The notes beneath the pieces were generated by a model that saw only the letters and a program-made list of their open reading frames with translations, was not told the DNA's origin and did not search any database. A program made the translations under genes and the position numbers. From an uncultured Spirochaetaceae bacterium (GTDB lineage Bacteria > Spirochaetota > Spirochaetia > DSM-27196 > SLST01), in the NCBI GenBank assembly GCA_964458555.1, contig CAYWJH010000005.1:748-64747 (forward strand): 64,000 nucleotides of DNA, written 5' to 3'. Numbering within the stretch: the stretch's first letter is position 1; each line of letters opens with the position of its first letter. This document shows, piece by piece, positions 5,465 to 61,115 of this stretch.

Positions 5465-7662
5465 GCCGACTCGGTGGCCAGCACGACCCCCGATTTGCCG
5501 TCCTCCTTCGCCCGATACATCGCCTGATCGGCGGCGACAAGCAGCTCGTTGTAGCTCTCTCCGTGCGACGGGAAGAGGCTCACGCCGATGCTCGCGGTCA
5601 GGGTGGCGATCAGCTCCCCGATCGACAGCGGCTGCGCGATCCCGGCGAGTACCTTCGCCGCGATCGCGCGCGCCTCCTGCGCGCTGCCCACGTCGCGCAG
5701 CACGAGGACGAACTCGTCGCCGCCGATCCGCGCGACGGTGTCCGACTGGCGCACCGCGGCGCGCAACCGATCGGCGAGGCGGACCAGTACCTGGTCGCCC
5801 ATCTCGTGGCCGTAGGCGTCGTTGACCGGCTTGAAACTATCTATGTCGACGTAGAGCAGCGCAAACATCTGCTCCTGTCTGCGGGCGAGCGGAATGTGCT
5901 CATGGATGAGCTCGACGAGGAGCCGCCGATTCGGCAGACCCGTGAGAATATCGTGGTTCGCGAGGTGCTCGATCCGCCCGTACGCGCGTTCGAGCTCCTT
6001 CTTCTCGCCCTCGAGCGTCTCGTTCAGCTCTCTGATGGTGCGAAGCTTGCGCGCGTTGTCCATCGCTACCGCGATGTAGGGTACGAGCAGGCGAAGAACC
6101 GCCATACGCTCGTCGTCGTACGCGTTGCGGCGATAGCTCTGAACGGTCAGTACGCCGATGATTCGCCCCTCGAGCTCGAGCGGGAGATAGACGATCGACC
6201 TCGACTTTCCCGCCGTGAACCGCTTCGGACGCTCGATGTACCGCGAATACTCCTTCTCCGCGTTATTGAGGCAGATCTCCTCGCGGTTGCGCACGACCCA
6301 AGTCGCAAAGCTCTCCTTGCTCGAAACGGGCAGCACGAACGGCGTGAGCCGCTGGTTGTCCTCGATGACCACGGCGAAATCGAGCGATGCGTCCTGCTCC
6401 TCGAAGAAAGCCACGCCGAAGACGTCGGCGCTCATGAGCTCGTTCACCCGATCGTGCAACCGGCGCGCGATCTCATCGAGCTCCATCGCGGCGGTCAGCT
6501 CCGAGCCGATCCGGTACATCAGTTGGAGCGTGCGATTCCGTCGCGCAAGCTCGTCCGACTTCTCGCGAAGCTCCACGTTTCGCAGACGGACGATCTCCGC
6601 CTCCATCCGCGCCTGGTCGAGCTCGTGGCGCGCCTCGAGCGTCCGCAGGCGCCGAGCAGCGTCGGCGCCGGCGTGCTCGCGTTGCAGCTCGAGCAGCCAT
6701 CTCCCGAGGAGGTACGCCGCCTCCACGTCACCGCTCTGCGCCCGCAAATCGGCAAGACGCTCGACGAGCTCCATGGCGGTGATCTGAGCATCGGTCTCCC
6801 GCGCGATCGATACCGCCCGACGCGCGTGCTCTTCCGCCTCGTCGAGACGGCCGGCCGAAAGCAACAGCTCCACGAGCGACTCGAGCGACGCGATGACACC
6901 GCTCGGATGCCCGATCTCCTCGCATAGCTCGATGCTCTGATAGTGAAGCGCCTCTGCCTCTCCGTCGGGATCCTTCCCTCCGTTTCTGCGTAAGGTCGCC
7001 CGCCCGAGCTGAGAGAGCGCCTCCGCCTCGATGATCCGATCGCCCGCGGAGGCCGCGCGCGCGAGCGCACGGTCGAGTCCGTCCAGGGCCTGTTCCTCGT
7101 CGCCTCGCTCGATCTGGATCCGCGCGATGTTCACCTCCACGGTCGCGAGGATTCCTTCGTTGTCGAGCTCTGCGGCCAGCTCGAGCGCTCGCTCGTAGTG
7201 TTGGAGCGCGTCGGCGTAGTTACCGACCGCCGCGTGGAGCTCGCCCAGGTTGTTGAGGCTCGCGATCCGTCGCTCGTGGGTCGGCGCGCGATCGGCCATC
7301 CGCAGCGCGTTTTCGAACAGCTCGCGGGCCCGCTCCGTCTCGCCAACCCGAAACGAGATCACACCGAGCGCGTTCGTCGCCTTATTCACGCCTTCCTCGT
7401 CGGCCATCCGGAGGTAGCCTTCGCGTGAATCGGTAACAGCGCCAACCGCGTCGTCGTAGCGGCCCAGGTAGATCAACGCCCACCCCGCGTTGAGCCGCGC
7501 CTCCGCGAGACCGGCGTCGTCGCCCGCCGCCTCGGCATCGGCACGAGCCTCTTCCGCGAAGCGCAGCGCCGCACGTGGATTGCTCTGCGACACGTCCCAG
7601 GACTGCGCGTTGAGTTGTGCGACCCGACGACTGGCGTCGGGAACAGGTGCTTCGTGGGCCAT
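5392..7662 (-). CDS. TPR - coiled coil - GAF - GGDEF diguanylate cyclase
   Basis: 756 aa with N-terminal TPR-like repeats and a C-terminal GGDEF domain (RIGGDEFVLVL, YRAKEDGKS). Its tail overlaps the NUDIX 3' end by 73 nt (convergent genes). Confidence 0.9.
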   Translation of the reverse strand: MAHEAPVPDASRRVAQLNAQSWDVSQSNPRAALRFAEEARADAEAAGDDAGLAEARLNAGWALIYLGRYDDAVGAVTDSREGYLRMADEEGVNKATNALGVISFRVGETERARELFENALRMADRAPTHERRIASLNNLGELHAAVGNYADALQHYERALELAAELDNEGILATVEVNIARIQIERGDEEQALDGLDRALARAASAGDRIIEAEALSQLGRATLRRNGGKDPDGEAEALHYQSIELCEEIGHPSGVIASLESLVELLLSAGRLDEAEEHARRAVSIARETDAQITAMELVERLADLRAQSGDVEAAYLLGRWLLELQREHAGADAARRLRTLEARHELDQARMEAEIVRLRNVELREKSDELARRNRTLQLMYRIGSELTAAMELDEIARRLHDRVNELMSADVFGVAFFEEQDASLDFAVVIEDNQRLTPFVLPVSSKESFATWVVRNREEICLNNAEKEYSRYIERPKRFTAGKSRSIVYLPLELEGRIIGVLTVQSYRRNAYDDERMAVLRLLVPYIAVAMDNARKLRTIRELNETLEGEKKELERAYGRIEHLANHDILTGLPNRRLLVELIHEHIPLARRQEQMFALLYVDIDSFKPVNDAYGHEMGDQVLVRLADRLRAAVRQSDTVARIGGDEFVLVLRDVGSAQEARAIAAKVLAGIAQPLSIGELIATLTASIGVSLFPSHGESYNELLVAADQAMYRAKEDGKSGVVLATESAYRGRTSTLEESIESPSNANRPST

Positions 7663-12246: not shown

Positions 12247-12275
12247 GTTCTACGCCTCACCGTGGCACCTGTCAA
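12247..12275 (-). promoter_or_regulatory. Candidate sigma70 promoter for the sigma gene (TTGACA-N17-TAGAAC)
   Basis: Read on the minus strand. The -35 element overlaps the stop codon of the upstream LysM/M23 gene. The predicted 5' UTR is very short. Confidence 0.3.
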
Positions 12276-13042
12276 CCCCGAGGGGCGGTCTCCGGGTCGA
12301 CGTAACGATTGTTCTTCCACACGGTGAACAGCACCTTTGCCGAGTCGAACGCGGGCGAGAACCCCACGGTTCCGATCACCGATCCCGCAGCGACACGCGC
12401 GCCCTCGGTGACGAGGACGCGGTCGGCTCCCGCGTACCCGTAGAGGAAGCCGTTCCTGCTGCGCACGAGGATCAGTTTCCCGAAACTGCTGAACGGCCCC
12501 ACGAACTCGACCACCCCGTCGGTGACCGAGCGAAACTCATCGCCCTCGTTACCGCTCATTACGACGCCAGGGAATTTTCCGTCCCACACGAGGCGCTCTC
12601 CGGGATGGGGCCAATTGCCCGGATAGCCGGAGATGCCGGTCGACCCCGTAGAGCTCGGGTTGGACGACGCCACCGCTGCGGGAGACGGCGAGCCGGGCAC
12701 GACGAGGACATCGCCCGGCCGCACCACGTCGTCGCGACCGAGCCCGTTTGCCGCGAGCAGGTCAAGCCAGCCTACGCCGAGTTTGCGCGCGATCGAGTAG
12801 ACGTACTCGCCCTCGCGAACGACGTAGGTTCCCGGAATGCGGACGCGAGTTCCCACCGCGAGGCGCGTTGGGTCGGCGATGTCGTTGTACTCGAGAATCA
12901 CGTCGGCCTCGAGATCGTATCTGCGCGCGAGCGTGTAGATGGTCTCGCCTCGCGCGAGTACGTGCACCTGCTCGTCGGCCACTGCTGCCGAGGAGAGCAT
13001 CACGAGAAGTATGACTGCAGGACACAAGCGCTTGTTCGGCAT
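12272..13042 (-). CDS. NlpD-like secreted protein: 2x LysM plus a degenerate M23 (LytM) domain
   Basis: Start at MPNKRLCPAVILLVMLSSAAVA (13042); the ORF-track extension to 13567 has no support. LysM repeats are HVLARGETIYTLARRY... and YVVREGEYVYSIARKL... The LytM fold is present but the HxH metal ligands are not seen (…SAKVLFTVW…). Confidence 0.85.
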   Translation of the reverse strand: MPNKRLCPAVILLVMLSSAAVADEQVHVLARGETIYTLARRYDLEADVILEYNDIADPTRLAVGTRVRIPGTYVVREGEYVYSIARKLGVGWLDLLAANGLGRDDVVRPGDVLVVPGSPSPAAVASSNPSSTGSTGISGYPGNWPHPGERLVWDGKFPGVVMSGNEGDEFRSVTDGVVEFVGPFSSFGKLILVRSRNGFLYGYAGADRVLVTEGARVAAGSVIGTVGFSPAFDSAKVLFTVWKNNRYVDPETAPRG

Positions 13043-13126
13043 CTCGACGGTTACATTGTCGGAGACGGCACCCGGAAAATGAAGCCAATTGCTGTCAGCC
13101 CGCGCATCGCGTGGTAGGATGCCGGC

Positions 13127-13669
13127 GTGTACCGGCCCGTGCTTGTTCTCCTCGCCATTGGCGCGCTCTGCGGCCAGCTTGCTGCGGACCAGCCGACGCC
13201 GCTCGAACCCGTTCCCGACGAGGTCGACCTGGACCCGTACGCGGTGGTAGAACGCCACGGTCAGCCCGACTTTGCGGTGAGGAATCTGCTCGTCTACCAC
13301 CGCAGCTTCGCCGAGCTTCCGGCCGATGTCACGTTCTTCCTCGTCGACGGTCTCGTCCGCGAGGTGAGCTTCGCCTTCCCCGTCGAAGAAGGCGACGCTG
13401 CCCGGCTGAGAAGCGACGCCGATCGCGTCGTCAAGCGGCTGCGTGTGCTCTACGGAGCGCCTTCGGCAACGGTCCGTTCGGCCGGTTCGCACAGAAGCTT
13501 CTCCTGGCAAGACGATCGCGGGGAGCTGTTGCATACCCTCGTCCTCACGCCCGGCCGCGAGGAGCACTCGCTACGCGTCGCGCGCAGCGATTCGCCGTCC
13601 GCACCGCCGCAGACGAGGGGCGCCGGACAGCGTCATACTCAACCGTCATACTCAGGAGACACAAAGTGA
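13127..13669 (+). CDS. Hypothetical secreted protein or lipoprotein (180 aa)
   Basis: Signal peptide MYRPVLVLLAIGALCGQ. High GC3. Its TGA overlaps the GTG of ptrB (GTGA). Confidence 0.6.
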   Translation: MYRPVLVLLAIGALCGQLAADQPTPLEPVPDEVDLDPYAVVERHGQPDFAVRNLLVYHRSFAELPADVTFFLVDGLVREVSFAFPVEEGDAARLRSDADRVVKRLRVLYGAPSATVRSAGSHRSFSWQDDRGELLHTLVLTPGREEHSLRVARSDSPSAPPQTRGAGQRHTQPSYSGDTK

Positions 13670-53553: not shown

Positions 53554-54567
53554 TTACGGGTAGGTCGCGCGGAATCCCCGAACGCGGGAGGAGACGTCCA
53601 GATCGAACCCGTCCCGATCCCCCCGTCGCAGCAGGTGATACCCCAGGCCGGCGATCATCGCGCCGTTGTCGGTGCACAGCTCGATGGGCGGAAAACGCAC
53701 CTCGAGCTCGGCGTGCGCCTCGAGCACCGATCGCAGGTAGCTGTTCGCCGCGACCCCGCCGCCGACAACGACGCGACGGAGCCCGGTGTCTTCGACCGCG
53801 CGGAACAGCCGCTTCAACAGCGAGTCGATCGCGACGCGCTGGAAACTCGCGGCGATGTTCTCCTTCGACCTCGCCGACTCACCGTCCCAGAACTGCTCGA
53901 GCTGGTTGATCACCGCGGTCTTCAGCCCCGAGTACGACACGTCGTACCGGTGCTCGCCCTTATGCAGGTTCGCGTCGGGAAAGACGAACGCGCGGTCGTC
54001 CCCACGCTGCGCGAGGCGGTCGATCGCCACGCCACCCGGGTACCCGAGACCGTAGTGCTTCGCGACCTTGTCGAACGCCTCGCCGCACGCGTCGTCGATC
54101 GTCGTGCCCATCACGTGCATCGTGAACGGGTCCTCCGCGCGCGCGATGATCGTATGCCCGCCGGACACGAGGAGCCCGAGAAACGGGTACTCGATTTCGC
54201 CCGCGAGCTGCGGCGCGTACAGGTGCGCGAGCATGTGGTCGACCCCCACGATGGGAAGGCCGAGCCCGTAGGCGAGCCCCTTCGCGAAGGAGAGCCCCAC
54301 GACGAGCGCGCCCACGAGACCGGGGCGCGTCGTCACCGCCACCGCGTCGAGCTCCCTCGCATCGACCGCCGCCCGCTCGAGCGTCCGGCGATACACCGGC
54401 CCGATCCAGCGCGTGTGCGTCCTGCTCGCGATCTCCGGCACGACTCCCCGGTACGGGGCGTGCTCCTCGAGCTGCGTCGCGATCACCTGCCCGAGAATCG
54501 TGCGTCCGTCCTCGACGACCGCCGCCGAGCACTCGTCGCACGAGCTTTCGATCCCGAGAACCTTCAC
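53554..54567 (-). CDS. tsaD: tRNA N6-adenosine threonylcarbamoyltransferase TsaD (Kae1/Gcp)
   Basis: MKVLGIESSCDECSAAVV..., HMLAHLYAP, and the GGVAAN motif. Confidence 0.95.
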   Translation of the reverse strand: MKVLGIESSCDECSAAVVEDGRTILGQVIATQLEEHAPYRGVVPEIASRTHTRWIGPVYRRTLERAAVDARELDAVAVTTRPGLVGALVVGLSFAKGLAYGLGLPIVGVDHMLAHLYAPQLAGEIEYPFLGLLVSGGHTIIARAEDPFTMHVMGTTIDDACGEAFDKVAKHYGLGYPGGVAIDRLAQRGDDRAFVFPDANLHKGEHRYDVSYSGLKTAVINQLEQFWDGESARSKENIAASFQRVAIDSLLKRLFRAVEDTGLRRVVVGGGVAANSYLRSVLEAHAELEVRFPPIELCTDNGAMIAGLGYHLLRRGDRDGFDLDVSSRVRGFRATYP

Positions 54568-55637
54568 TCGGCGTCCCCCGCGGCCACGCGCACCGGCGAA
54601 ACCAGGCTCGAGAGGCGCGCGAACTCGTAGCCCTCGTCGACGATCACCGGGTACGTCTCCCCGAGAACCTCCGCGAGCAGCGGCACCGTCACGTGTCCGA
54701 TCATCACCACCGGCTCGCCGTGTCCGCTCAGCTCGAGCGCGTGTCCGAGCGAGCGCAGGATCTCCTCACGCGTGCGCTCGTGGTCGAGGAAGACCGCGCG
54801 CTCGGCGAACGGGATACCAACCTCCGCGGCTACGGCGCGGCCGGTAGTGGCCGCGGATGTCCGACTGTCGAGGAAGAAGAGGTCACGGTCGTGGAGCGCG
54901 CCGAGCACGACGCGCATCACCTTCTCGTTCGCGGTAGCCTTCGAGCCCATGTGATTGTTCACACCGATCGCCCCGGGGACGCTCGCGAGGTCATCGCCCA
55001 CGCGCGTCGCGATCTCCTCCTCGCTCAGGCCGGTGAGTATCGCTCCCGGGCCGGGATTAGCCCCGTTTTCGGCCTCCATGGGCAGGTGGAGCAGGACTTC
55101 CTTGTCGGCGGCCGCGGCCATCGCGGCTGCGCGCACCGAGTAGTCGAGCTGCGGAAGAACCGCGACGGCGAAGGGAAAGGGAAGGTCGAGAAACGCGTCG
55201 AATCCGTCGAGCGTATTGCCCGCGTCGTCGAGCACGAGCACGAGCGGCCCTCGCGCAGCGGGTGGCGGAGGCGAGTCGGGCACCCACCACTCGCCCTCCT
55301 CGGAGACCTCGGGCGGCGGCTCACCACCCGGCGCCCGACCGCCGGGAGCCTCGTCGTCCGGATACCCCTCGGTCACCGGCCCGTCGACCGCCTCGCCGTC
55401 GCCGGCGGGCCGCCTCTCGTCCACGGGTGGCTCGGATTCTTCGGGGGTCTCACGATCCGAGGCGTGCGCTTCGCCCGTCGTGACCTCGCCCGGCTCGGGC
55501 AGGAGCGCGACGACCACGCCGAGCAGCACGGCGATGGCGGCGAGCAGCACAATCAGGCTCGTTCGCTCGCGCGCGGTCGTCCTTCGGCGTCGGGACGAAG
55601 TCGTTCTTTTCGGCGATGGGCGACTACCGCGTTTCAC
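54564..55637 (-). CDS. Divergent polysaccharide deacetylase family protein (YibQ-like) with an N-terminal TM anchor and a Pro/Glu-rich linker
   Basis: Core LVLVLDDAGN...PFPFAVAVLP...LLHLPMEA...GVNNHMGS matches the YibQ/DUF610 pattern. Overlaps tsaD by 4 nt. Confidence 0.8.
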   Translation of the reverse strand: MKRGSRPSPKRTTSSRRRRTTARERTSLIVLLAAIAVLLGVVVALLPEPGEVTTGEAHASDRETPEESEPPVDERRPAGDGEAVDGPVTEGYPDDEAPGGRAPGGEPPPEVSEEGEWWVPDSPPPPAARGPLVLVLDDAGNTLDGFDAFLDLPFPFAVAVLPQLDYSVRAAAMAAAADKEVLLHLPMEAENGANPGPGAILTGLSEEEIATRVGDDLASVPGAIGVNNHMGSKATANEKVMRVVLGALHDRDLFFLDSRTSAATTGRAVAAEVGIPFAERAVFLDHERTREEILRSLGHALELSGHGEPVVMIGHVTVPLLAEVLGETYPVIVDEGYEFARLSSLVSPVRVAAGDAE

Positions 55638-55728
55638 GATGCCTCACGGTAGTATCATCGATCGGTCGCGGTCAACTGTTTAGGCCCGCCGCGCAACCCG
55701 GGTGAGAAGCGGGGCGCGGCCTCGCGCC

Positions 55729-56574
55729 CTACTCGTAGACGAATTCCTCTATCTCGCCGGCGTGCTGGCGCAGCTTGCGCAGCGCGCGCATCTCGATCTG
55801 GCGAACGGTCTCCGGGCTGATTCCCATCTCGTCGCTGATTCGCTTGAGGGTGTACTTCTTGCCGCCGTAGAAGGCGAACCGGTAGAGGAGGATCTTCTTC
55901 TCCTTCTCGCGAAGCCGTTCGAGGAATCGCAGCGTCTCGTCGTGCATGACCTGCTGCATCACCCCGGTGTCCGGCGCGTAGCTGTAGTCCTCGAACACGT
56001 CGTGCAGCGTGCCCGACTCGGCGTTGATGTCGCTGTCCAGCGATACCGGGCCGCTCGAGATGTTGAGGATCTGCACGACATCGTCGCTCGGCATCCCTAC
56101 CTCTTCGGCGACTTCCTCGACGCTCGGCCGCCGCATCAGCCGCTGGCTCATCGAATTGTACGCGCGCTGGATCTTCCGCAGCGCGTCTTCCTTGCGGTGC
56201 GGAAGGCGGATGCTGCGTCGCTTGTTGCTCAGCGCGCGCGTGATCGACTGCTTGATCCACCACGACGCGTACGTGGAGAAGCGCACCTTCTTGCGGTGAT
56301 CGTACTTGCTCGCCGCCTTGAGCAGACCCAGGTTTCCCTCCTGGACGAGGTCGAGCAGGCCGACGTCGTTCGAGACGTACGCCTTCGCGATCTTCACGAC
56401 GAGGCGGAGATTGGCTTCTATGAGTTGCTTGCGTGCGTCCTCGTCCCCGGCTTCGATGCGTCGCGATAGCTCGAGCTCTTCTTCGAACGACAGCAGCGGT
56501 GTCTTGCGGATCTGACTGAAATACGCCTTCAGCGCATCGTCATCCCGTACGGTCTTTGCCTTCTTTGTGGCCAT
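55729..56574 (-). CDS. Sigma-70 family alternative sigma factor, group-2-like (candidate spirochaete-type RpoS), 281 aa
   Basis: Motifs YFSQIRKTPLLSFEEELELSRRI, LLDLVQEGNLGLLKAASKYD, FSTYASWWIKQSITRAL and ISPETVRQIEMRALRKLR. It follows the flagellar rod genes and has a sigma54 promoter upstream. Confidence 0.9.
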   Translation of the reverse strand: MATKKAKTVRDDDALKAYFSQIRKTPLLSFEEELELSRRIEAGDEDARKQLIEANLRLVVKIAKAYVSNDVGLLDLVQEGNLGLLKAASKYDHRKKVRFSTYASWWIKQSITRALSNKRRSIRLPHRKEDALRKIQRAYNSMSQRLMRRPSVEEVAEEVGMPSDDVVQILNISSGPVSLDSDINAESGTLHDVFEDYSYAPDTGVMQQVMHDETLRFLERLREKEKKILLYRFAFYGGKKYTLKRISDEMGISPETVRQIEMRALRKLRQHAGEIEEFVYE

Positions 56575-56595
56575 ACGTGCTCCTGCTTCTTATAC

Positions 56596-56612
56596 AGCAA
56601 AACACGTGCCAA
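56596..56612 (-). promoter_or_regulatory. Sigma54 (RpoN) -24/-12 promoter: TTGGCACGTGTTTTGCT
   Basis: Exact match to TGGCAC-N5-TTGC (YTGGCACG-N4-TTGCW). It lies 21 nt upstream of the sigma-factor ATG. Confidence 0.75.
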
Positions 56613-56746
56613 CCAAGGGGTAGAACCGAAGGCGGTGTATCTCGTTTTCACGAATGGAATTATCAGACCGATGCGCTCCAGGCGGCGAGACGGTCCTCGA
56701 ACTGTTCACTTTTGCATACAATCGGGCCGAGGGCACGGTACCAGAA

Positions 56747-57106
56747 TCATACACCCCCGTACGCGTCGGCGGCTCGGCGCGCCGCCGCAGGGCTCACCGG
56801 AGCCGCGACCGAATCCTCGAGCTGCTCTACGATCATGTCCGCGATACCGAGGCCACCCTCCTGCGAGAGCATCCGAGCGTACTCCTCGTAGAGCATGTCC
56901 TCGAAGATATCCTGGCCCATGCCTCCGTTGAACATGTCGTCGTCGGGGTTAAGTGTATCGCGCATGCTGTCGAGCATCTGCTTCGCGAACAGCGATTCGA
57001 ACTCCTTCGCCACCGCCTCGAGCCGCGTTCGGGAATCGGCGTCCGGTAGATCGAGCGTCACCTCATTCCGGTTCCACTGCGCCATGTTCGCGGCGATCGG
57101 GTCCAT
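56747..57106 (-). CDS. Flagellar rod-binding protein (FlgJ N-terminal / Rod-binding domain only)
   Basis: 119 aa. EFESLFAKQMLDSMR is the signature of the FlgJ rod-binding domain. No muramidase domain is present. Confidence 0.8.
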   Translation of the reverse strand: MDPIAANMAQWNRNEVTLDLPDADSRTRLEAVAKEFESLFAKQMLDSMRDTLNPDDDMFNGGMGQDIFEDMLYEEYARMLSQEGGLGIADMIVEQLEDSVAAPVSPAAARRAADAYGGV

Positions 57107-57108
57107 GC

Positions 57109-57903
57109 TTACCTCTTCAGGTTGTTCGCGATCCCGAGCATCGTGTCGCTCGTCTGAATCGCCTTGGAGTTCATCTCGTACGCCCGCTGAGCGACGATCA
57201 TGTTGACCATCTCCTGCACCGCCTCGACGTTCGACATCTCGAGGAACTTGTGCAGCGTCTGACCCATCCCGTCAAAGCCGGGCTGCGCCGCGATGGGCTC
57301 GCCGGATGCCGCGGACACCTTGTAGATATTGTCGCCGATCGCCTGGAGCCCTGCGGGGTTCACGAACCGGTAGAGCTCGAGCTGGCCCACGTCGACCGGG
57401 TCTTCGAGCCCCGGCAGCCGCGTCGTGACCCGGCCGTCCTGCGAGATCGCAACCGACTCCCGGATGAACCCCTCCGGCAGGACGAGCTCCGGCATCAGCC
57501 GGTACCCCTGGCTGTTCACGAACTGCCCGTTCGAGTCGATCTTGAACGAGCCGTCGCGCGTGTAGCCGAAGCTGCCGTCGTAGAGCAGGACGCGGAAGAA
57601 ACCCTCGCCCTGGATCGCAATGTCGCTCACGTTGTTCGTGTTCTGAAGCGACCCCTGCGTGTGGATCTTTTGCGTCGCCGCGACCTTCACGCCGTGGCCC
57701 ACCTGCACGCCGACCGGACGAAGCGTCTCCTCGGTCGCGGGGGTCCCCGCCATGCGGACGGTGTGGTAGAGCAGGTCCTCAAAGTCGGGCCGGTTCTTCT
57801 TGAAGCCCGAGGTATTCACGTTGGAGAGGTTGTTCGCGATCGTGTCGATGTTGAACTGCTGCCCGATCATGCCGGACGCGGCAGTCCACAGTGATCTCAT
57901 CAT
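57109..57903 (-). CDS. flgG: Flagellar basal-body rod protein FlgG
   Basis: MMRSLWTAASGM...NNLSNVNTSGFK N-terminus and AQRAYEMNSKAIQTSD C-terminus. 264 aa. Confidence 0.93.
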   Translation of the reverse strand: MMRSLWTAASGMIGQQFNIDTIANNLSNVNTSGFKKNRPDFEDLLYHTVRMAGTPATEETLRPVGVQVGHGVKVAATQKIHTQGSLQNTNNVSDIAIQGEGFFRVLLYDGSFGYTRDGSFKIDSNGQFVNSQGYRLMPELVLPEGFIRESVAISQDGRVTTRLPGLEDPVDVGQLELYRFVNPAGLQAIGDNIYKVSAASGEPIAAQPGFDGMGQTLHKFLEMSNVEAVQEMVNMIVAQRAYEMNSKAIQTSDTMLGIANNLKR

Positions 57904-57917
57904 CTCGTCACGCTCCT

Positions 57918-58778
57918 TTACAGCGTCATCGCCCGGTTGATCAGCTGACCGGTCATCTGGTCGTGCGACTGAATCGCCTTCTGGTTGGCCTCGTAGGCGC
58001 GGTTGACCTCGATGAGCTGAACCATCTCGGTAACCGGATTCACGTTGCTCGTCTCGAGGAAGCCCTGATGGACCTTCGGCCGCTGTGATCCCATCGTAAA
58101 CGCCTCGCCGGATTCATCGGTGGTCGTCCAGAGGCTGTCGCCCTGCTTGCGGATATAGCGCGTGTTGCGCATGTCGACGATGCGCAGCCGGTCGACGCGG
58201 ACCGTATCTTCCCACTCGTTTTCGCGCATGCTCACCAGGCGCTCGGGGTCCTCGGCGAGCGCGTCGTTCTGGTAGATCACCCCGTCCTCGTCGACGACGA
58301 AATTGTTGAGCTTCAGCTGAATGGACCCGTCCTCGCCGAGGACCGGGTAGCCCTGCTTGGTGACGAGCATCCCTTCCGGCCCGATGAGGAAGCTCCCGTT
58401 GCGCGTGTAGCGCTCGCCCTGCGGCGTCTGCACGGCGAAGAAACCTTCGCCCTCGAGCGCGATGTCGAACGCGTTGTCGGTCTGCTTGAGGCTCCCCTGG
58501 CTGAAGACCGTGTAGTACTCGTTGGTCTCGACGCCGGTACCGACCTGGCCCACGACCGGCGCGACGTCGTACGAGCCGAACGGAAAGCTACGAAACGGGA
58601 TCTGCGTCTGCCCGTCGTCGCTCATCCGCCGGATGAGCAGCTCCGGAAACGCCTTCTGGATGGGCGTATCGCGCTTGTAGCCGGTCGTGTCGACGTTGGC
58701 GAGGTTATTCGACAGCGCGTCGAGTCTGTTCTGCTGAACGACCATGCCGGCGGCGCCGGTATACATGCCTCGTAGCAC
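57918..58778 (-). CDS. flgF: Flagellar basal-body rod protein FlgF (FlhO in spirochaete nomenclature)
   Basis: (M)LRGMYTGAAGM...NNLANVDTTGYK N-terminus and VNRAYEANQKAIQSHD C-terminus. GTG start after GGGAGG. Confidence 0.88.
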   Translation of the reverse strand: MLRGMYTGAAGMVVQQNRLDALSNNLANVDTTGYKRDTPIQKAFPELLIRRMSDDGQTQIPFRSFPFGSYDVAPVVGQVGTGVETNEYYTVFSQGSLKQTDNAFDIALEGEGFFAVQTPQGERYTRNGSFLIGPEGMLVTKQGYPVLGEDGSIQLKLNNFVVDEDGVIYQNDALAEDPERLVSMRENEWEDTVRVDRLRIVDMRNTRYIRKQGDSLWTTTDESGEAFTMGSQRPKVHQGFLETSNVNPVTEMVQLIEVNRAYEANQKAIQSHDQMTGQLINRAMTL

Positions 58779-59470: not shown

Positions 59471-60109
59471 CTACTGCTTTCGGCGGCTGTTCACGAAGCG
59501 GACGAACTCGTTGATGTTCGTGAGGACGATCCGGTCCTTCTGGACCTCGAGTCGCCGCTGGCTCACGAAGTGGTTGAGCACGTGCTTGGTCTCGTCGGTC
59601 GACAGACCCGCCCAGTGGGCGACGTCCTCCGGCGTCGTGAAGAAGACGCGCTCGTCGGATTCCTCGTCGTTGGGCTGCTCGCCGCGCAACTCGTTCAGCA
59701 TGAGGAAGACGTCGGCCACGCGCGCCTGCGTGTCTTGGAGCGTGAGGATCATGAAGCGGCGGCGCTGATCGTAGATGCGCTTGGTGAAGAGCTTCAGCAG
59801 CTTCAGCGCGATCGCCGGGTTGCCTCGCATGAGGATCTCGAAGTTCTCGCGGTTGAACTCGAGGCACTTCACCTGCTCGGCGGCGATCGCCGTCGCCGAC
59901 CGTGGCGCCTCTTCGAGAATCGCCATCTCGCCGAAGATCTCGCCCGGCTGCAGGACGTCGACCGTCTTCTCAATATCGCCCATGATCTTGGAGATCTGGA
60001 CCGTGCCCTCCTGGATCAGGTAGAACGCGTCGCCCGGCTCGTACTCGCAGAAGATAATCTCGCCCGGCTGATAGCCGACGGCGAACCGTTCAAAGGCCTC
60101 GAGGTTCAT
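59471..60109 (-). CDS. Crp/Fnr family transcriptional regulator (cNMP-binding domain plus C-terminal HTH)
   Basis: cNMP motif GEIFGEMAILEEAPRSATAIA and a C-terminal HTH region (TPEDVAHWAGLSTDETKHVLNHF). Confidence 0.85.
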   Translation of the reverse strand: MNLEAFERFAVGYQPGEIIFCEYEPGDAFYLIQEGTVQISKIMGDIEKTVDVLQPGEIFGEMAILEEAPRSATAIAAEQVKCLEFNRENFEILMRGNPAIALKLLKLFTKRIYDQRRRFMILTLQDTQARVADVFLMLNELRGEQPNDEESDERVFFTTPEDVAHWAGLSTDETKHVLNHFVSQRRLEVQKDRIVLTNINEFVRFVNSRRKQ

Positions 60110-60110
60110 C

Positions 60111-61115
60111 TCAGCCCTCCCCCGTCTTCATCGCGCGGCGGACCTTGCGCATGAGCGCCTCGCCCACGTTGGGCATGCCCGTGATCTTCTGGTAGAAGCT
60201 CTGCGCCCGCTGTGGATCGCCCTTCCGATGGTACGACTGCCCGACGTAGTAGAGCGCGTCGGGGAGCTCGGGGATCTTCGGGTAGCGTTGAATGAGGCCG
60301 GTGAAGTGCTTGATGCACGCGTCGTACTGCTGGAGGCTGAAAAAACACCGACCCATCTCGAAGAGACTCTTGATACGGTACTCTTCGTCCTCGCTGTTTT
60401 CTGCGATGTGCTTGAACGCGCGCAGCGCGTCGGTGTACTTCTGCTGGCTGAAGGTGCTGACCGCGGCGTAGAACTCCTTCGCCGCCGCCGAGAGCTGTCT
60501 GCCCTCCTCAGGCTTGTCCGCGGCGGGCGCGGAACCCGACTCGAGCCCCTGGATGTTGGGACCCTTGCCCGCCCCGTACTGCTGGAGGAACTGCTCGGCC
60601 TTCTGCGCCAACTCGTTCGCCTTCGCGTGGAAGCGCCCGGAGGGATAGTAGGTGAGATAGCGCCGGAAGGCGTAGAGCGCCTGCTCGTAGCGTTTCTTGC
60701 CCAGGTAGTGCTGCCCGATGTTGAACAGCCCCACCTCCGGGTTGACCTGCTCGTCCTCGGCGAGGAGCGTGCTCACCTTCGCGTGCATGCGGCGGAGCTG
60801 ATTGCTGAACACCTTGAGCATCTTCATGATGATGCGCGTGTTCTGGCTGACGAGTTGCTCGAACTCCGGGACGGTGAACATGATCACCGACGTATCTGAC
60901 AGGACGACCGCGTTCTCCTCGCGGGGGTACTTGCCCAGCGCGCTCTTCACGCCGAAAAACTCACCGGTTTGAATGTAGTCGTGAATCTCCTGGCCCGTCT
61001 CTATGTCGGTGGAGTTGAGGCTGACTCGCCCCGATTTGAGGATGTAGATCTTGTCGCTCACATCGCCACGGAAGTAAATGACCGAGTTGGCCTTGAAATT
61101 CATGGGACGCGGCAC
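60111..61115 (-). CDS. cNMP-binding domain protein fused to TPR repeats
   Basis: N-terminal FRGDVSDKIYILKSGRV...GEFFGVKSAL and C-terminal TPR-like repeats (YEQALYAFRRYLTYYP, YTDALRAFKHI, YDACIKHFTGLIQRYP). GTG start with GAGGAG 8 nt upstream. The stop lies 1 nt before the Crp-like ATG. Confidence 0.8.
   Translation of the reverse strand: MPRPMNFKANSVIYFRGDVSDKIYILKSGRVSLNSTDIETGQEIHDYIQTGEFFGVKSALGKYPREENAVVLSDTSVIMFTVPEFEQLVSQNTRIIMKMLKVFSNQLRRMHAKVSTLLAEDEQVNPEVGLFNIGQHYLGKKRYEQALYAFRRYLTYYPSGRFHAKANELAQKAEQFLQQYGAGKGPNIQGLESGSAPAADKPEEGRQLSAAAKEFYAAVSTFSQQKYTDALRAFKHIAENSEDEEYRIKSLFEMGRCFFSLQQYDACIKHFTGLIQRYPKIPELPDALYYVGQSYHRKGDPQRAQSFYQKITGMPNVGEALMRKVRRAMKTGEG

Follow-up and report, generated by a model that had tools for sequence, protein, structure and literature searches.

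In the DNA of an uncultured Spirochaetaceae bacterium, a gene for an alternative sigma factor lies directly behind a run of flagellar rod genes, and the short gap in front of it holds what is, with high probability, a functional sigma-54 promoter. The DNA in question (the window) is a stretch of 64,000 nucleotides from contig CAYWJH010000005.1 of assembly GCA_964458555.1, positions 748 to 64,747 of the forward strand; coordinates given below without a locus number are window positions. The sigma gene is, judged mainly by synteny on both of its sides, the positional orthologue of Borrelia rpoS, a gene for which a sigma-54 promoter has been proven between flgJ and rpoS (PMC1976401). Such wiring, as predicted here for spirochaetes outside Borrelia, appears to be a new find, and its features, as far as they can be read from sequence comparison, suggest that the arrangement in Borrelia is a derived variant.

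A probable sigma-54 promoter in the flgJ-sigma gap

The two features at the centre of this analysis are the following.

56596 to 56612, minus strand: sigma-54 type -24/-12 promoter TTGGCACGTGTTTTGCT, read directly, with its GG at 56610-56609 and its GC at 56598-56597
55729 to 56574, minus strand: gene for a group-2-like sigma-70 family protein of 281 residues, positional orthologue of Borrelia rpoS

The promoter had been picked out in an earlier annotation of the window made from its letters alone (the original prediction), which placed a full match to the extended consensus at 56612-56596, in a 172-nt gap between the stop codon of a FlgJ-like gene (56747) and the start codon of the 281-residue reading frame (56574), found no further TGGCAC...TTGC pair in front of a gene and saw no terminator between the rod genes and the sigma gene. 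These statements held throughout. Read on the minus strand, TTGGCACGTGTTTTGCT fits both TGGCAC-N5-TTGC and YTGGCACG-N4-TTGCW, its GG and GC doublets are exactly 10 bp apart, and its TTGCT ends 21 nt short of the sigma ATG. The pattern TGGCAC-N5-TTGC occurs once in the window, and there is still no second site if one mismatch is allowed. Dinucleotide-preserving shuffles of the window contained a mean of 0.06 exact matches, with at least one match in six of 100 shuffles. A scan of the flgJ-sigma gap for sigma-70 promoters returned no site, a consensus scan of the minus strand from the rod genes to the sigma gene gave no terminator-like site, and a search of positions 55500-57000 against Rfam produced no credible match.

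Conservation of the -24/-12 box among spirochaetes

Related loci were collected by scanning one genome per GTDB species, which yielded 59 spirochaete loci with an orthologue of the sigma gene. They include members of the Spirochaetaceae, Alkalispirochaeta alkalica DSM 8900, Marispirochaeta, Sediminispirochaeta, Gracilinema, Treponema and Rectinemataceae; two of them start inside the gene, leaving 57 with usable upstream sequence. Conservation of the motif upstream of orthologues had been set beforehand as a test capable of refuting the original prediction. A -24/-12 box of the form TGGCA(C/T)-N5-(T/C/A/G)(T/C)GC is present on the sigma strand, shortly upstream of the start, in all 57 loci (two of which have TTGT in place of TTGC), and the five bases of its spacer vary freely from locus to locus. 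A strict version of the pattern, TGG[CT]A[CT]N5T[TC]GC[AT], has 42 matches on both strands of the 624,431 bp that make up the 59 loci, and every one of the 42 lies at the position of the sigma promoter. No -24/-12 box precedes the sigma homologues of Nitrospirota, Verrucomicrobiota and Firmicutes. Where Treponema-like loci have a gene for a LysM-M23 peptidase upstream in place of the flagellar genes, the box is kept, which argues that the box belongs to the sigma gene rather than to the flagellar operon. Together with the orthology to rpoS described below, these data support the proposal that wiring from sigma-54 to an alternative sigma factor is not confined to the Borreliaceae.

Two further observations concern these loci. 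The LysM-Peptidase_M23 gene adjoins the sigma gene upstream at L039:4491-5666 and L040:4444-5607, and a protein of the same architecture is encoded elsewhere in the window (12272-13567, minus strand). In the 624 kb of L001-L059, a relaxed form of the -24/-12 pattern is confined to the sigma gene; uniform base composition would predict about five occurrences elsewhere. Avoidance of stray sigma-54 sites could account for this, or just base composition.

The sigma factor and its orthology with Borrelia RpoS

Pfam regions 1.2, 2, 3 and 4 are all present in the 281-residue protein, and the Sigma70_r1_1 domain is absent. Its best NCBIfam matches are RpoS and RpoD/SigA models, every one of them below its cut-off; the top-scoring model is that of proteobacterial RpoS (TIGR02394 / NF004207), which it matches with 250.5 bits against a cut-off of 378.7. 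Compared with sigma factors of solved structure, it is about as similar to a Firmicute SigA (212 bits) as to RpoS of E. coli (190 bits) and to RpoD. The same protein (P0001) is also on record from samples ERZ922773 and JGI 3300012009. The label of a housekeeping RpoD/SigA was rejected, all models being below their cut-offs and region 1.1 missing. So was that of a FliA or extracytoplasmic function (ECF) sigma factor: FliA is not among the 25 families listed, and the sole ECF-type entry is the generic sigma70-ECF superfamily at rank 25. This is in line with the group 1/2 type, as opposed to FliA or ECF, that had been proposed from motifs in regions 2 and 4. In public databases the proteins of this spirochaete family go by 'RpoD/SigA', 'sigma-70 family' or 'RNA polymerase primary sigma factor' (P0030, P0044 and P0082, and even B. 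recurrentis P0157), and name-based searches miss the family because of these RpoD/SigA labels.

The genes that flank the sigma gene in the window, all on the same strand, are these.

57918 to 58778, minus strand: flgF/flhO-like rod gene (TIGR02490, 194 bits against a cut-off of 178.5)
57109 to 57903, minus strand: flgG, distal rod (NF009456, 466 bits against a cut-off of 416)
56747 to 57106, minus strand: gene for an N-terminal FlgJ domain (Rod-binding, PF10135), 119 residues; the same domain is directly upstream of Borrelia rpoS
54564 to 55637, minus strand: divergent polysaccharide deacetylase (PF04748), conserved downstream neighbour of the sigma gene
53554 to 54567, minus strand: tsaD, conserved downstream neighbour

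For the comparison with Borrelia, a 32-residue stretch of B. burgdorferi RpoS was rebuilt from published quantitative PCR primers (PMC1976401), and a tandem query made of it retrieved the RpoS proteins of Borreliella bavariensis (P0158) and Borrelia recurrentis (P0157). The order in the window is flgF-flgG-Rod-binding-sigma-Polysacc_deac_2-TsaD, followed by hpt (phosphoribosyltransferase); in both Borrelia species it is flgF-flgG-unnamed gene-flgI-Rod-binding-rpoS-Polysacc_deac_2-TsaD, with hpt and a DUF2147 gene on the opposite strand ahead of flgF and with hk2-rrp2 6.5 kb downstream of rpoS. Many relatives of the window carry flgA-flgI between flgG and the rod-binding gene, an exact match to the Borrelia order. 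The resemblance to the Borrelia rpoS neighbourhood that the original prediction had remarked upon thus extends to both sides of the sigma gene. At the protein level, the window sigma factor is 39% identical to Borrelia RpoS (E = 1e-57) and shares with it the signature YAS-WIKQ, and its R127-K128 align with R121/K122, basic residues in region 3 of Borrelia RpoS that were singled out by Caimano et al. Phylogeny had been proposed as a further check. In a neighbour-joining tree whose outgroups were the homologues at hand, with no proteobacterial RpoS and no spirochaete RpoD among them, the Borrelia and other spirochaete sigma factors formed a single clade in 40 of 40 bootstraps, to the exclusion of the homologues from Nitrospirota, Verrucomicrobiota and Firmicutes.

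The window itself and its closest relatives (L001-L003 and L005-L008) lack flgA and flgI, which in the window would fall between 57106 and 57109; the corresponding genes can be seen at L004:3781-5537 and L010:3296-5396.

Conserved dyads and an AT-rich element upstream of the box

Three further elements, absent from the original prediction, lie upstream of the -24/-12 box.

56704 to 56719, minus strand: proximal dyad GTATGCAAAAGTGAAC, 108 nt ahead of the T in TGGCAC; a candidate upstream activating sequence, to which the activator may bind
56738 to 56752, minus strand: distal dyad GTATGATTCTGGTAC, degenerate, with a spacer one base short, overlapping the flgJ-like stop codon
56645 to 56662, minus strand: AT-rich element TAATTCCATTCGTGAAAA, 51 nt ahead of the T in TGGCAC; a protein that bends DNA might bind here

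In the 130 nt that precede the -24 box at the spirochaete loci, Gibbs sampling picked out a dyad, GTATA-N6-TATAC, with the consensus tGTATAcAAAAaGTATACa, which was then scored with a symmetrised matrix. The proximal dyad GTATGCAAAAGTGAAC is the top match to this matrix in the whole window (15.9 against 8.7 for the next). Of the 57 loci, 56 have a proximal dyad that passes the 99th percentile of the background; it starts at -112 to -98 relative to the T of TGG, and its offsets fall into two groups about 10 bp, or one helical turn, apart (-112 to -105 and -102 to -98). A distal dyad exceeds the 95th background percentile in 38 of the 57, and in 33 of these 38 it sits 32-34 bp upstream of the proximal copy. 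The conserved dyads are thus found at about -110 and -143 from the -24 box, with a putative role in activation. Between them and the box, an AT-rich motif, TAAnTnnnTTAyA..A.AA, is located at -53 to -49 from TGG in 52 of 58 loci. It was not labelled as a site for integration host factor (IHF), the consensus for which fits only in part, and has been retained as a possible bend site. When the window is aligned with five relatives, the dyads and the AT-rich element stand out as islands of identity in a diverged spacer, and the dyads accompany the -24/-12 box even where the upstream gene differs.

The same architecture can be recovered from DNA without reference to any protein. Metagenome contigs were scanned for GTATA-N6-TATAC-N{80,98}-TGGCAY-N5-TTGC, and 53 of the 112 informative hits proved to have a homologue of the sigma gene (32-86% identity) within 200 nt downstream; the AT-rich element is also present in 47 of these 53. 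The dyad matrix found no conserved site at the B. bavariensis and B. recurrentis loci, where the best scores were -1.7 and -0.6, and this absence agrees with the published enhancer-independent action of Rrp2. We lean towards the view, on grounds of position and conservation, that the dyads are the enhancer of a sigma-54 activator, and together with the AT-rich element they would make this promoter more canonical than its counterpart in Borrelia.

Seven of the metagenome hits that are not followed by a sigma gene nonetheless keep the full architecture of dyad, AT-rich element and -24/-12 box (L131, L150, L116, L127 and L106 among the loci named). The pattern precedes homologous membrane proteins of about 208 residues in L131 and L150 and homologous lipoproteins in L116 and L127, and in L150 a GAFTGA activator is encoded about 3 kb downstream. 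This design may therefore drive a few other genes in some lineages.

A very short predicted leader

Two more features lie between promoter and start codon.

56583 to 56586, minus strand: start of transcription as predicted from the usual geometry of sigma-54 promoters, 12-14 nt past the -12 GC
56580 to 56584, minus strand: Shine-Dalgarno (SD) sequence AGGAG, its first base 13 nt past the C of the -12 GC

The start of rpoS that has been mapped in B. burgdorferi is 14 bp past the GC (PMC1976401). In the window only 22 nt separate the -12 GC from the ATG, and the leader is accordingly predicted at about 9-11 nt. A leader of about 10 nt had been noted as an oddity in the original prediction, and it turns out to be a conserved property of the family: the SD begins 12-14 nt after the C of the -12 element in 34 of the 51 loci with a recognisable SD, and the median distance from GC to start codon is 23 nt. 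These comparisons point to the short leader as a conserved design to which Borrelia would be the exception.

Why promoter and SD should fit so tightly together may have to do with RNA that reads through from the rod genes. Folding predictions indicate that the promoter sequence pairs with the SD in read-through RNA, although the z-scores for the window itself are not significant. Over 39 loci, the mean unpaired probability of the SD was 0.70 in the short transcript, 0.30 in the read-through transcript and 0.43 when the upstream part was shuffled (Wilcoxon p = 0.004), with read-through accessibility below the shuffled control in 27 of the 39. Masking of the SD in read-through RNA, as the reason for the tight fit, is suggested by these models and should be taken as suggestive only.

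At six loci (L013, L033, L034, L040, L042 and L044) there is an ATG 15 nt after the -12 GC and no SD, and an essentially leaderless sigma mRNA is therefore predicted. B. recurrentis (CP000993.1, L087:7926-8003) has an SD, GGGAGAAGG, and, 22 nt past the -12 GC, an ATG, a spacing typical of spirochaetes other than Borrelia. This ATG opens just a six-codon reading frame ahead of the annotated GTG start of rpoS, and may be a relic of the ancestral start.

Sigma-54 and its activator

When the window and loci L001-L084 were scanned for the GAFTGA motif and the RpoN box, the rpoN of L043 was the sole hit and nothing turned up within the 64 kb of the window, and Pfam analysis of ten window reading frames of activator- or sigma-54-like size identified no rpoN and no activator. 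In L043, a complete rpoN with AID, CBD and DBD domains (5749-7140) is located 2.2 kb downstream of a promoter-bearing sigma gene on the same contig, with an opposite-strand SpoIID-TPR gene between the two. T. denticola has an Rrp2 orthologue (TDE1969) which is a predicted sigma-54 activator with targets unknown (PMC12070737; supplement of PMC3162934), and which according to a 2025 paper 'remains unstudied' (PMC12070737). By analogy with the rpoN of L043, hk2-rrp2 of Borrelia and Rrp2 of T. denticola, we infer that rpoN and an activator are present in the genome from which the window derives.

A model for expression of the sigma gene

In the mechanism that we envisage, sigma-54 holoenzyme would bind TGGCAC-N5-TTGC (56611-56597) and wait there as a closed complex. 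An activator of the NtrC family, most likely an orthologue of Rrp2, would bind the dyad about 108 nt upstream and, in most relatives, a second dyad about 33 bp further away. It would then contact the polymerase by DNA looping, perhaps with the help of a bend in the AT-rich element (-51), and the complex would be opened. Transcription would begin about 12-14 nt past the GC, at the SD, to give a very short-leadered mRNA for the group-2-like sigma factor, which in turn would redirect RNA polymerase to a regulon of its own. Read-through from the rod genes probably yields a second, longer transcript, in which the promoter sequence would tend to pair with the ribosome-binding site. What the sequences show directly is the elements, with their conservation and fixed spacing, and the orthology to Borrelia rpoS. 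The use of sigma-54 in this genome, the identity of the activator, the assignment of the dyads as its sites, the start site and the logic of two transcripts are all steps that we infer from the comparisons above.

A broader reading can be put forward tentatively, as one that has a little less than even support in our judgement. It holds that the cascade from sigma-54 to an RpoS-type factor is ancestral to the non-leptospiral spirochaetes, meaning the Spirochaetaceae, the Treponema-like lineages and the Borreliaceae, and was enhancer-dependent, with two dyads, a bend element and a nearly leaderless message; Borrelia would be derived, having lost the enhancer and gained a 50-nt leader, and the fit between promoter and ribosome-binding site would represent a two-transcript gate older than the DsrA system of Borrelia. 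If the gate exists, only the sigma-54 transcript would be freely translated, the flagellar read-through RNA being masked.

Alternative explanations

Several observations weigh against an enhancer-dependent sigma-54 promoter at this locus. In the window, the right half of the proximal dyad is imperfect (GTGAAC) and the distal dyad scores poorly (-1.6), its assignment coming from alignment with the distal dyads of L001-L003, L005 and L007. No sigma gene follows 59 of the 112 composite hits in metagenomes, so that the pattern alone is not specific; most of these 59 look like products of chance, with gaps that are roughly uniform and a random base after TGGCAY. A start 12-14 nt past the GC would leave the SD at the extreme 5' end of the message or clip it, which is unusual. 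The lack of rpoN in the window and the choice of outgroups in the tree belong on the same side. So does the published finding that Rrp2 of B. burgdorferi activates rpoS independently of an enhancer, which also speaks for an alternative in which the -24/-12 promoter is real and the dyads bind some other regulator (a repressor, a Fur/BosR-like co-activator or a nucleoid protein) while the activator acts from solution. An extra DNA-binding protein of this kind, BosR, binds around the B. burgdorferi rpoS promoter, our sequence analysis ties no activator to the dyads, and the dyad sequence is unlike that of an NtrC site. On the other hand, the dyads are about 33 bp apart and about 100-145 bp upstream of the box, with offsets one helical turn apart, and such spacing is the classic arrangement of NtrC-type enhancers. 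They also stay with the box when the upstream gene changes, and they are wanting in the two Borrelia species examined, which belong to the lineage of the enhancer-independent Rrp2. We consider this alternative unlikely, although it carries more weight than those that follow.

The main role of the motif might instead be something other than that of a promoter. Sigma-54 holoenzyme docked there could stop or modulate transcription arriving from the rod genes, or the motif could work in the RNA, hiding the ribosome-binding site of the longer transcript. That nothing resembling a terminator separates the rod genes from the sigma gene would suit either role, as would the pairing of the promoter region with the SD in read-through RNA and an SD accessibility that falls below that of shuffled controls over the 39 loci. 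However, invariant GG and GC doublets at an exact spacing around a free spacer are the signature of a protein-DNA contact and not of RNA covariation, the motif persists at loci that have no flagellar genes upstream, and the orthologous site in Borrelia is a proven promoter. The upstream dyads, moreover, make sense for activation only, and the effect seen in RNA is a modest one (27 of 39 loci; not significant in the window). This explanation is accordingly a very improbable one. More remote still, to the point of being negligible, is a chance match in the window, with expression of the sigma gene left entirely to sigma-70 or sigma-28 promoters of the flagellar operon. Six of 100 window shuffles contain an exact match somewhere, and no rpoN is seen in the window, so that from one window alone the probability of a chance match would be about 6%. 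The comparative data remove and indeed already contradict it: the box recurs in 57 of 57 loci, the strict pattern occurs 42 times out of 42 at the sigma position and nowhere else in 624 kb, and a scan of metagenomes by DNA alone leads to the sigma gene in 53 of 112 informative hits.

Comparison with known systems

A sigma-54 promoter that is opened with the help of an upstream enhancer, the arrangement we favour here, can be set against several known cascades. The closest is that of Borrelia: the locus is orthologous, with synteny on two sides and rod genes directly upstream in both; the two promoters agree in type and position (TTGGCACAATTTTTGCAT in B. bavariensis, TTGGCACGTGTTTTGCT in the window); and the target is a group-2-like sigma factor without region 1.1 that has an R-K pair at the positions of Borrelia R121/K122. 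There are also differences. The Borrelia promoter is 62 bp from the ATG and gives a leader of about 50 nt (PMC1976401), whereas the window has 22 nt and a predicted leader of about 9-11 nt. One or two dyads and the AT-rich element are present in the other spirochaetes, while the two Borrelia loci are without a dyad; hk2-rrp2 is near rpoS in Borrelia and absent from the 64-kb window; and the window belongs to an organism found in a microbial mat, not to a pathogen carried by ticks.

The enterobacterial glnAp2 and other NtrC-type promoters share with the present locus a -24/-12 box, two dyads that are spaced by about three helical turns and lie at roughly -100 to -170 from the start, and an AT-rich stretch in between at which a bending protein could act. 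They differ from it in the sequence of the dyad, here GTATA-N6-TATAC, in that the regulated gene here is a sigma factor and in the extremely short leader, and the activator in the case of the window is a candidate only. Sigma-54 also turns on another sigma factor, sigma-28 (FliA), the gene for which stands beside flagellar genes, in the flagellar cascades of Vibrio, Pseudomonas and Campylobacter. The window differs from these cascades in that its sigma factor does not have FliA among its 25 listed matches, and in that the flagellar linkage is lost in Treponema-like loci with the promoter kept. The protein resembles proteobacterial RpoS in having regions 1.2-4 without 1.1, but it falls below the cut-off for that family and is equally near to SigA and RpoD; Borrelia RpoS, for its part, is regarded in the literature as an independent duplication of rpoD.

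In the full-text literature, a link from sigma-54 to RpoS was found for Borrelia only; subscription papers are thinly covered by this search, and an earlier mention is possible. Papers on Leptospira describe a genus without RpoS, and Francke et al. (2011) named control of sigma-S for Borrelia only. The part covered of the supplement to that study (PMC3162934) contains no sigma-54 site before a spirochaete sigma gene.

Significance

The RpoN-RpoS pathway is the central virulence switch of the Borrelia that cause Lyme disease. Finding the same wiring in free-living spirochaetes of mats, and in spirochaetes of sediments and guts, would mean that Borrelia adapted an old spirochaete circuit and did not invent it. 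Were the ancestral reading to be true, loss of the enhancer would explain both why Rrp2 appears 'enhancer-independent' in Borrelia and why BosR was recruited, and it thereby offers a possible evolutionary reason for the lack of enhancer binding by Rrp2 and the need for BosR in that genus. In practical terms, GTATA-N6-TATAC is a concrete candidate for an enhancer sequence, and the sigma gene is a possible target for Rrp2 of T. denticola, whose own locus is outside the loci compared here. Lastly, the RpoD/SigA labels in public databases, applied even to B. recurrentis, hide the sigma family to which all of these genes belong.

Further features of the locus

Two minor features flank the genes discussed above. 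A GC-rich hairpin, GGGCGCG-AGGC-CGCGCCC (55712-55729, minus strand), opens on the final base of the stop codon of the sigma gene. It lacks a clear T tract and escaped the terminator scan, and may be a terminator or a stabilising element. At the other end of the locus, two genes for proteins with cyclic-nucleotide-binding domains, one of them fused to TPR repeats, are situated upstream of flgF (59471-61115, minus strand), a position that is kept in L001-L003 and L021.

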